A stretch of 5,620 nt of DNA from a virus (taxonomy: Duplodnaviria; Heunggongvirae; Uroviricota; Caudoviricetes): IMG/VR virus record IMGVR_UViG_2700989510_000036. One strand, written 5' to 3'. Numbering within the stretch: position 1 is the first letter of the stretch; each line of letters begins with the position of its first letter. A program made the translations under genes and the position numbers. Under the pieces are notes generated by a model. That model saw nothing but the letters and a program-made list of their open reading frames with translations. It did not search any database and had not been told where the DNA came from. Shown here piece by piece: positions 3,238 to 3,507 of the stretch.

Positions 3238-3507
3238 ATGAACATACTAAAAAAACTTATGCAGCGTCTGTGTGGTTGCGGAAAGCATGATGACCGTGAA
3301 CACGGGGAGTTACTTACAGCACAACTGCGACTGGGGCCGGCAGACATCCTGGAGTCAGATGAGAATGGCATTATTCCGGAGCAGGACAGGGTAATCACAC
3401 AGGTGGTGATACTGGATGCGGATAAAAAGCAGATACAGTGCGTGGTAAGACCGCTGCAAATCCTACGTGCTGACGGGAGGTGGGAAAATATTGGCGGGAT
3501 GAAATAG
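3238..3507 (+). CDS. Hypothetical small protein (89 aa), translationally coupled to stf; function unknown
   Basis: ATG at 3238 lies 1 nt after the stf stop and is preceded by AGGAGA (3225-3230) at a 7-nt spacing. The ORF-track start at 3106 is alternate-frame overlap with stf and is rejected. Product: MNILKKLMQRLCGCGKHDDREHGELLTAQLRLGPADILESDENGIIPEQDRVITQVVILDADKKQIQCVVRPLQILRADGRWENIGGMK. No signal peptide and no family that I recognise; it does not resemble lambda Tfa. Followed by a terminator. Confidence 0.55.
   Translation: MNILKKLMQRLCGCGKHDDREHGELLTAQLRLGPADILESDENGIIPEQDRVITQVVILDADKKQIQCVVRPLQILRADGRWENIGGMK

Follow-up and report, generated by a model that had tools for sequence, protein, structure and literature searches.

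A small gene directly behind the collagen-like tail fibre gene of an EHEC-type prophage encodes a free-standing relative of the fibre knob

The window analysed here, a stretch of DNA 5,620 nucleotides in length, is the right end of the tail region of a lambdoid prophage of the EHEC type, and the whole of it is 98% identical to chromosomes of O157:H7, O111:H8 and relatives. The subject of this analysis is a reading frame of 89 codons (ORF89) located between a side tail fibre gene (stf) and genes for type III effectors, amongst the following features:

100–1224: J, C-terminal part
1295–1894: lom
1953–3236, plus strand: stf, a collagen-like side tail fibre of EPclA architecture (PfN, coiled coil, collagen repeats, PfC), from Pfam domains
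3009–3200, plus strand: PfC knob of stf (stf residues 353–416), the paralogue of ORF89 (PF06820, E 5.8e-34)
3227–3231, plus strand: Shine-Dalgarno sequence AGGAG within the stf 3' end, 6 nt 5' of the ORF89 ATG, by direct reading
3238–3507, plus strand: ORF89, a free-standing protein with a tail-fibre C-terminal (PfC) domain (PF06820, PHROG 576, WP_001023992.1)
3238–3318, plus strand: N-terminal extension of ORF89, residues 1–27, with a predicted amphipathic helix (residues 3–12) and a flexible linker containing C-G-C-G (AF2)
3319–3504, plus strand: PfC beta-domain of ORF89, residues 28–89
3519–3549, plus strand: terminator-like hairpin with an A-tract 5' and a U-tract 3', closing the fibre module (-21.3 kcal/mol, z -3.9)
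3550–3579, no strand: module boundary, where similarity to other prophages ends and variable cargo begins (57/78 alignments)
3620–4195, 4268–4897 and 4979–5620: three NleG-family type III effector genes

The Pfam matches of stf (PF08400 at residues 3–135, PF01391, and PF06820 at residues 353–416) correspond to the domain architecture described for EPclA in PMC3368898. A second strong terminator-like hairpin (1921–1942; 9 pairs, 7 of them G-C, then a T-run) lies between lom and stf, and the fibre gene is thus placed between two terminator-like elements in the late region. On the minus strand, two antisense ORFs (2182–2967, 261 aa; 2649–3398, 249 aa) extend across the collagen-repeat and PfC regions; they do not look like genes but like by-products of codons that are repetitive and rich in G+C, and the annotation of phi24B includes a similar 'hypothetical protein' in antisense. 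The three tandem NleG genes (DUF1076, U-box) each match PF06416 or are annotated as DUF1076 in the 98%-identical O157:H7 locus.

At the junction of the two genes (...ACAGGAGAATGACATGAAC...), the stf TGA (3234–3236) is followed by a single spacer C (3237) and the ATG of ORF89 (3238), such that the junction reads ACAGGAGAATGACATG. The first-pass annotation had placed the start one nucleotide after the stf stop, with its Shine-Dalgarno sequence inside the stf 3' end, and had read the arrangement as translational coupling; the sequence bears out both the placement and the coupling geometry (TGA-C-ATG), and the TGA-N-ATG junction is identical in all 76 related loci with enough upstream sequence. 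Judging from this geometry, ribosomes finishing stf would go on to translate ORF89. The reading frame stays open in the 5' direction to a TTG at 3106 (the open frame 3106–3507 includes ORF89), which accounts for the 102–135 aa forms annotated in some records, though the 89-aa form is favoured because the Shine-Dalgarno sequence and the ATG are conserved. The product (MNILKKLMQRLCGCGKHDDREHGE...GGMK) carries the C-G-C-G motif pointed out previously, at residues 12–15, and its N-terminus (MNILKKLMQRLCGCGK) by inspection lacks a hydrophobic core and has charged residues at positions 5, 6 and 10, in agreement with the earlier statement that no signal peptide is present. A lipoprotein reading of LCGC was rejected by inspection, as no hydrophobic signal precedes the Cys. 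A run of seven A (3250–3256) covers codons 4–7 (CTA AAA AAA CTT), and the sole broken allele among 57 has an early stop at codon 8 beside this run (MNILKNL-stop).

The first-pass annotation assigned ORF89 to no family, and this was wrong. The remote-homology search that it proposed returned a clear family, the PfC domain that also ends the upstream fibre: residues 28–89 match PF06820 (Phage_fiber_C, "PfC") over the complete model (1–64 of 64) with 125.4 bits (E 1.1e-36), where the gathering score is 25 bits, and residues 1–89 align to positions 1–89 of 89 of PHROG 576, 'tail fiber protein' (E 4.4e-60). The RefSeq entry (WP_001023992.1) is already named 'phage tail fiber C-terminal domain-containing protein'. 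In a direct BLASTP comparison, 62 aa align with the stf PfC at 35% identity (E 1e-10). In ORF89 only a 27-aa arm precedes the domain, which does not lie at the C-terminus of a fibre polypeptide; Pfam membership goes by domain, and the free-standing position does not exclude ORF89 from PF06820. PF06820 was the only family found in a Pfam scan of ORF89 with E up to 1, at which Caudo_TAP was not found; NCBIfam and Rfam gave no match, and the anti-phage defence models of PADLOC gave 0 families at E up to 1. A HMMER search against 1.84 billion representatives returned 57 matches, nearly all of them chimeras or pieces of this one sequence; the family is very narrow and has no depth to draw on. Searches of PDB sequences with the single protein and with the PfC profile produced chance matches only (PKN1 HR1, bacterioferritin, optineurin), which were discarded. 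By sequence comparison, then, ORF89 is a free-standing paralogue of the terminal knob of stf itself with an N-terminal extension of 27 residues.

The single-chain AF2 model of ORF89 places a helix at residues 3–12, followed by a stretch with pLDDT below 50 at residues 14–25, and a predicted beta-domain that resembles phage fibre tips, with the Mu fibre as the best structural neighbour. Core residues common to ORF89 and the fibre PfC are G33, G44, T54, Q74, G80 and W82. Non-synonymous polymorphism falls mostly in the N-terminal arm, and the pattern M-x-I-x-K-K-[LI]...L-x-G-C-x-K within the arm is retained in an orthologue of 60% identity.

ORF89 is a real gene under purifying selection. Conservation in related prophages had been named previously as the test for a spurious ORF, and the frame is unbroken in 75 of 76 related loci, while neighbouring stf frames are interrupted in roughly 17 of the 76. 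The 57 unique alleles from 82 loci contain 24 synonymous and 32 non-synonymous variants (pN/pS about 0.39), and the variants present in at least 8 alleles are 15 synonymous versus 3 non-synonymous. The synonymous bias of this polymorphism, combined with a Pfam match of 125 bits against a cut-off of 25, makes ORF89 more than a chance reading frame. The same is seen over a larger distance in P0128 (79 aa, 60% identity to ORF89), for which dN is 0.29, dS 1.04 and dN/dS 0.28. In its locus (L085), P0128 is located directly behind a different fibre, of 212 aa, which ends in PfC and has neither PfN nor collagen; the small ORF overlaps the fibre end by 14 nt and is preceded by an AGGAGG Shine-Dalgarno sequence, with a hairpin and then different cargo on its 3' side. 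The layout of a fibre ending in PfC, a small PfC ORF and a hairpin has thus been kept despite a changed shaft and a changed coupling geometry. Between the two lineages the ORF89 proteins are 60% identical, against about 33% for the fibre knobs (dN 0.71), and this higher conservation is unlike a specificity-matched partner of the knob.

The distribution of ORF89 follows that of the fibre end. Among 5426 complete E. coli genomes, ORF89 DNA was found in 698 (6381 places, median 10 per genome) and the PfC-coding end of stf in 697 (6158 places), and the two travel as a unit. The co-occurrence with this type of stf C-terminus, which the first-pass annotation had asked about, is therefore almost perfect. 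Carriers make up about 13% of complete E. coli genomes, and the matches listed include major EHEC and EPEC serotypes. The hosts found were E. coli, E. albertii and Citrobacter rodentium, and a scan of genome contigs added only E. albertii and a 725-bp contig assigned to 'Xanthomonas pisi' (L092, NZ_JPLE01000138.1), which is 92% identical to ORF89 and almost certainly E. coli contamination. Phage copies are 92–99% identical across long-tailed lambdoids (including lambda h434 imm21 and phage 2B8) and short-tailed Stx2 phages (including the EDL933 Stx prophage and phi24B). The C. rodentium loci (L086–L090, 5479–6237) hold a degraded pair, consisting of a truncated fibre of 161–166 aa with a weak PfN and a PfC and a 78-aa ORF89 homologue with internal deletions; an NleG fragment adjoins the pair and a large lymphostatin-like gene is about 4 kb away.

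On the 3' side, similarity between prophages ends about 45–70 nt past the ORF89 stop codon, with 57 of the 78 prophage alignments that are not cut by a locus end stopping at window positions 3550–3579. The hairpin at 3519–3549 was not called in a strict terminator scan; L084 and the divergent locus L085 each carry its equivalent. As homology spans ORF89 and the hairpin and mostly ends before the cargo, ORF89 is to be counted with the fibre module, not with the NleG genes. The suggestion that it might go with the downstream cargo is refuted by this boundary, and the alternative that it belongs functionally with the fibre is supported by the shared module and the co-occurrence with the fibre PfC end. 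ORF89 is the last gene of the tail-fibre module, followed by the terminator-like hairpin. Taken together, it is almost certain that ORF89 is a genuine gene, that it belongs to the fibre module and that it is a free-standing paralogue of PfC.

The 3' half of ORF89 also occurs by itself. Fragments of this half, most with the hairpin and 85–88% identical, lie on the 3' side of the complete gene, at a distance of about 1 kb or more, in L051 (5044–5206), L003 (5975–6111), L075, L066, L038, L072, L071, L069, L056, L055 and L081, and in L051 an NleG gene is present between the complete ORF89 and its downstream fragment. The 3' half and the hairpin look like a recurrent crossover point for the exchange of effector cargo, and the recurring fragments suggest that this sequence may help to shuffle virulence genes between prophages. 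The position of ORF89 is a hinge, with the tail-fibre module on one side and exchangeable type III effector cargo on the other. In lambda h434 imm21 (L002, OM418627.1, 5438–8873), a laboratory hybrid with the host-range region of phage 434, the stf-ORF89 pair is present, and behind it lie fragments whose annotation is NleB-, NleC- and NleH-like effector genes. In phage 2B8 (L003, 7807–8046), a fragment of 79 aa labelled 'tail fiber assembly protein', which lies about 2.5 kb past ORF89, may be the remnant of an older stf-tfa module replaced by the PfC-type fibre end.

The gene is not new to the literature; it has been annotated, falls in a Pfam family, and has been noted and deleted in Sp5. Published orthologous copies (Sp5, phi24B) are 92% identical to ORF89. 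Mondal et al. 2016 (PMC5155283) deleted genes of unknown function in Sp5 and found the fibre, ORF67, to be essential, while ORF68, described as '89 amino acids, apparent phage fiber C-terminus domain', was among the non-essential genes, dispensable for plaques and lysogeny on K-12. The same authors found no frameshift signal and suggested ORF68 as a reservoir for fibre variation. On the side of the fibre, Ghosh et al. 2012 (PMC3368898) described a trimeric dumbbell in which the 7-kDa PfC domain alone is trimeric (SEC-MALLS) and re-nucleates the collagen helix, and full recombinant EPclA (rEPclA) made alone in BL21(DE3) still trimerises; the small ORF after the fibre gene is not discussed. In the virion proteome supplement of the phi24B cryo-EM preprint (10.64898/2026.04.10.717836), two peptides unique to the orthologue gp59 (VITQVVILDADKK and ADGTWENIGGMK) have a count of 3 each, compared to 2267 for the fibre gp61 and 23 and 19 for Lom and Q, which the authors regard as contaminants and which exceed gp59. 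The gp59 row is labelled 'Spike or just gp59?', and the main text makes no mention of gp59. The trace counts indicate that gp59 is translated in lytic growth and is not stoichiometric in the virion.

Based on these observations, ORF89 is tentatively proposed, at a little short of an even chance, as a dispensable accessory of PfC-tipped fibres that would act through its knob-like domain. Trimerisation of ORF89 through its PfC domain is probable because the PfC of the fibre trimerises alone, and the protein might use the shared beta-domain to contact the fibre knob, either while the fibre is being assembled or afterwards. The paralogy, the selection, the layout of L085, the co-occurrence, the module boundary, the lytic translation and the fibre-tip-like fold all point to an accessory of this kind; against it are the non-essential Sp5 orthologue, the folding of rEPclA without a partner and the better conservation of ORF89 relative to the knobs. 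The counts of 3 and 3 for gp59 peptides versus 2267 for the fibre make a tightly bound 1:1 partner unlikely. The first-pass annotation had further suggested an analogue of Tfa unrelated in sequence. This option is weakened: given a non-essential Sp5 ORF68, a fibre that trimerises alone and the trace in virions, neither an obligate chaperone of the Tfa kind nor a tip protein in stoichiometric amounts is likely, though ORF89 may be a non-essential helper. Overall, the interpretation in that annotation is partly supported.

A more specific version of the accessory role, which is speculative and on balance unlikely, is that PfC-knob fibres use a new kind of partner, a free-standing tip paralogue made in step with the fibre that caps or templates the knob transiently or acts as a soluble decoy at lysis. 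If true, the tip paralogue would tune adsorption or host range on natural hosts with no phenotype on K-12, and would represent a class of fibre accessory unrelated to Tfa or gp38 that is present in about 10 copies per carrier EHEC/EPEC genome.

Several other explanations deserve consideration. The suggestion of Mondal et al. 2016 (PMC5155283) can be phrased as a spare tip cassette, with ORF89 as an alternative fibre C-terminus that is recombined onto the fibre to change host range. There are sequences of the kind that such recombination would leave: P0061 (L084:1–291, with a short collagen tract) has collagen repeats in frame with the ORF89 PfC at about codon 33, apparently joined via G-P-A codons, and the reciprocal chimera P0125 has the N-terminal half of ORF89 and the C-terminal half of the fibre PfC. 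Both chimeras are rare and both originate from draft assemblies. The fused form is very rare, with a cluster of 4 member sequences where the free form has thousands, and the best matches listed in complete genomes all had collagen and ORF89-PfC as separate pieces, where the junction search joins separate pieces and rare contiguous cases could escape it. No DNA repeat links the two PfC copies, no invertase gene is present in the window, and the only two inverted pairs are weak (76–79% complementary) and do not flank the PfC segments. Further, a silent copy needs no Shine-Dalgarno sequence, ATG or N-terminal arm, yet all of these are conserved even in the 60%-identical lineage, and the gp59 peptides of phi24B show that the protein is translated. 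A spare cassette is therefore considered unlikely.

ORF89 could also be a fossil, a 3' end displaced from an older fibre gene, functionless and kept by hitch-hiking and gene conversion, with the DNA perhaps acting as a homology anchor for cargo exchange. Copies that are 92–99% identical across very different phages, at about 10 per genome, fit homogenisation, fragments made up of the 3' half and the hairpin turn up again at a distance of about 1 kb or more on the 3' side (after the NleG gene in L051), and deletion of the orthologue was without laboratory phenotype. A functionless sequence is, however, at odds with a dN/dS of 0.28 at a dS of about 1 and with common polymorphisms that are 15 to 3 synonymous, with a frame intact in 75 of 76 loci beside stf frames of which roughly 17 of 76 are interrupted, and with start signals kept in a different geometry in L085. 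The fossil explanation is accordingly rated as quite improbable.

A minor or loosely held tip adaptor, in which ORF89 trimers dock on the knob as a receptor-binding piece (cf. T2 gp38) and are lost from, or sub-stoichiometric in, purified virions, would agree with the resemblance of the fold to fibre tips and with peptides detectable in a cryo-EM-grade phi24B preparation; the coupled geometry should also give roughly 1:1 synthesis with the fibre. However, gp59 counts fall below those of the presumed contaminants Lom (23) and Q (19), and the Sp5 orthologue is non-essential while the Sp5 fibre is essential. A receptor-binding piece should also diversify, whereas ORF89 shows higher conservation than the other PfC copy, that of the fibre, and there is little reason to expect that an adaptor of this type is the answer.

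An obligate assembly chaperone of the Tfa type is very improbable, and for the orthologues it is largely refuted. ORF89 fills the gene slot directly after stf, and one depositor labelled the lambda h434 imm21 copy 'tail fiber assembly chaperone', a label that apparently derives from position only. Pfam at E up to 1 gives no Caudo_TAP match, trimers of the fibre form in BL21(DE3) with no help from ORF89, and the orthologue is non-essential though the fibre is essential. Finally, a frameshift or read-through fusion, in which some ribosomes shift +1 at the stf stop and produce a fibre with two tandem PfC knobs, can scarcely be credited, for although the ATG frame is +1 relative to stf, such that skipping the U of UGA would put the frames in phase, and the search database of the phi24B authors included Fusion_6159_FS1 and FS2 beside the row 'Spike or just gp59?', inspection finds no slippery codon before the stop and no cognate re-pairing of the P-site GAA at AAU, PMC5155283 reports no frameshift signal, the junction peptide was not found in the searched part of the phi24B supplement, and the L085 genes overlap by 14 nt in another geometry. 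A programmed +1 frameshift at GAA-UGA-C was rejected on the missing slippery codon.

Thousands of prophages thus retain, under selection, a free-standing relative of a fibre knob that is translated, yet dispensable in the laboratory. An understanding of this small part of Stx-phage and lambdoid fibre biology would show more clearly how fibres of the collagen-like type are completed or adjusted, and is unlikely to overturn current views.

Comparison with known systems places ORF89 amongst several arrangements at the ends of fibre genes. The invertible fibre ends of Mu and P1 (S/S', U/U') similarly present a second tip-coding segment beside the fibre gene; unlike these, the ORF89 locus has no invertase and no flanking inverted repeats, and ORF89 has start signals of its own. 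The gp38 adhesin of T2 and T6 is likewise small, with its gene placed behind that of the distal fibre, and ORF89 could also sit on the tip. gp38 is a stoichiometric component of the virion and determines host range, while the ORF89 homologue is a trace in virions and ORF89 is highly conserved. The genes for lambda Tfa and Mu gp50, like ORF89, are directly 3' of the fibre gene and tightly coupled to it, but neither protein has a sequence relationship to ORF89. Tfa is required for fibre folding, whereas the fibre type here folds alone (rEPclA) and the ORF89 orthologue is dispensable (Sp5). ORF89 occupies the slot of Tfa in lambda but fails the sequence and functional tests for a Tfa, the functional test coming from the literature on the orthologue. 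With the PfC of the EPclA and EPclB fibres, ORF89 shares its family, common core residues and an all-beta predicted fold at 33–35% identity, and differs in having no shaft, in having the 27-aa arm and in the absence of an 11–14-aa C-terminal tail. Sp5 ORF68 (which we take from gene order to be ECs1229), phi24B gp59 and the 933W copy, like ORF89, are 89 aa in length and located directly after a PfC-ended collagen-like fibre. The upstream fibre in these phages is EPclB on a podovirus, in contrast to EPclA and a lambda-like tail here, and other phage genes follow on the 3' side in place of the NleG effectors. At 92% identity to ORF89, these copies are the same gene, carried by short-tailed Stx2 phages.
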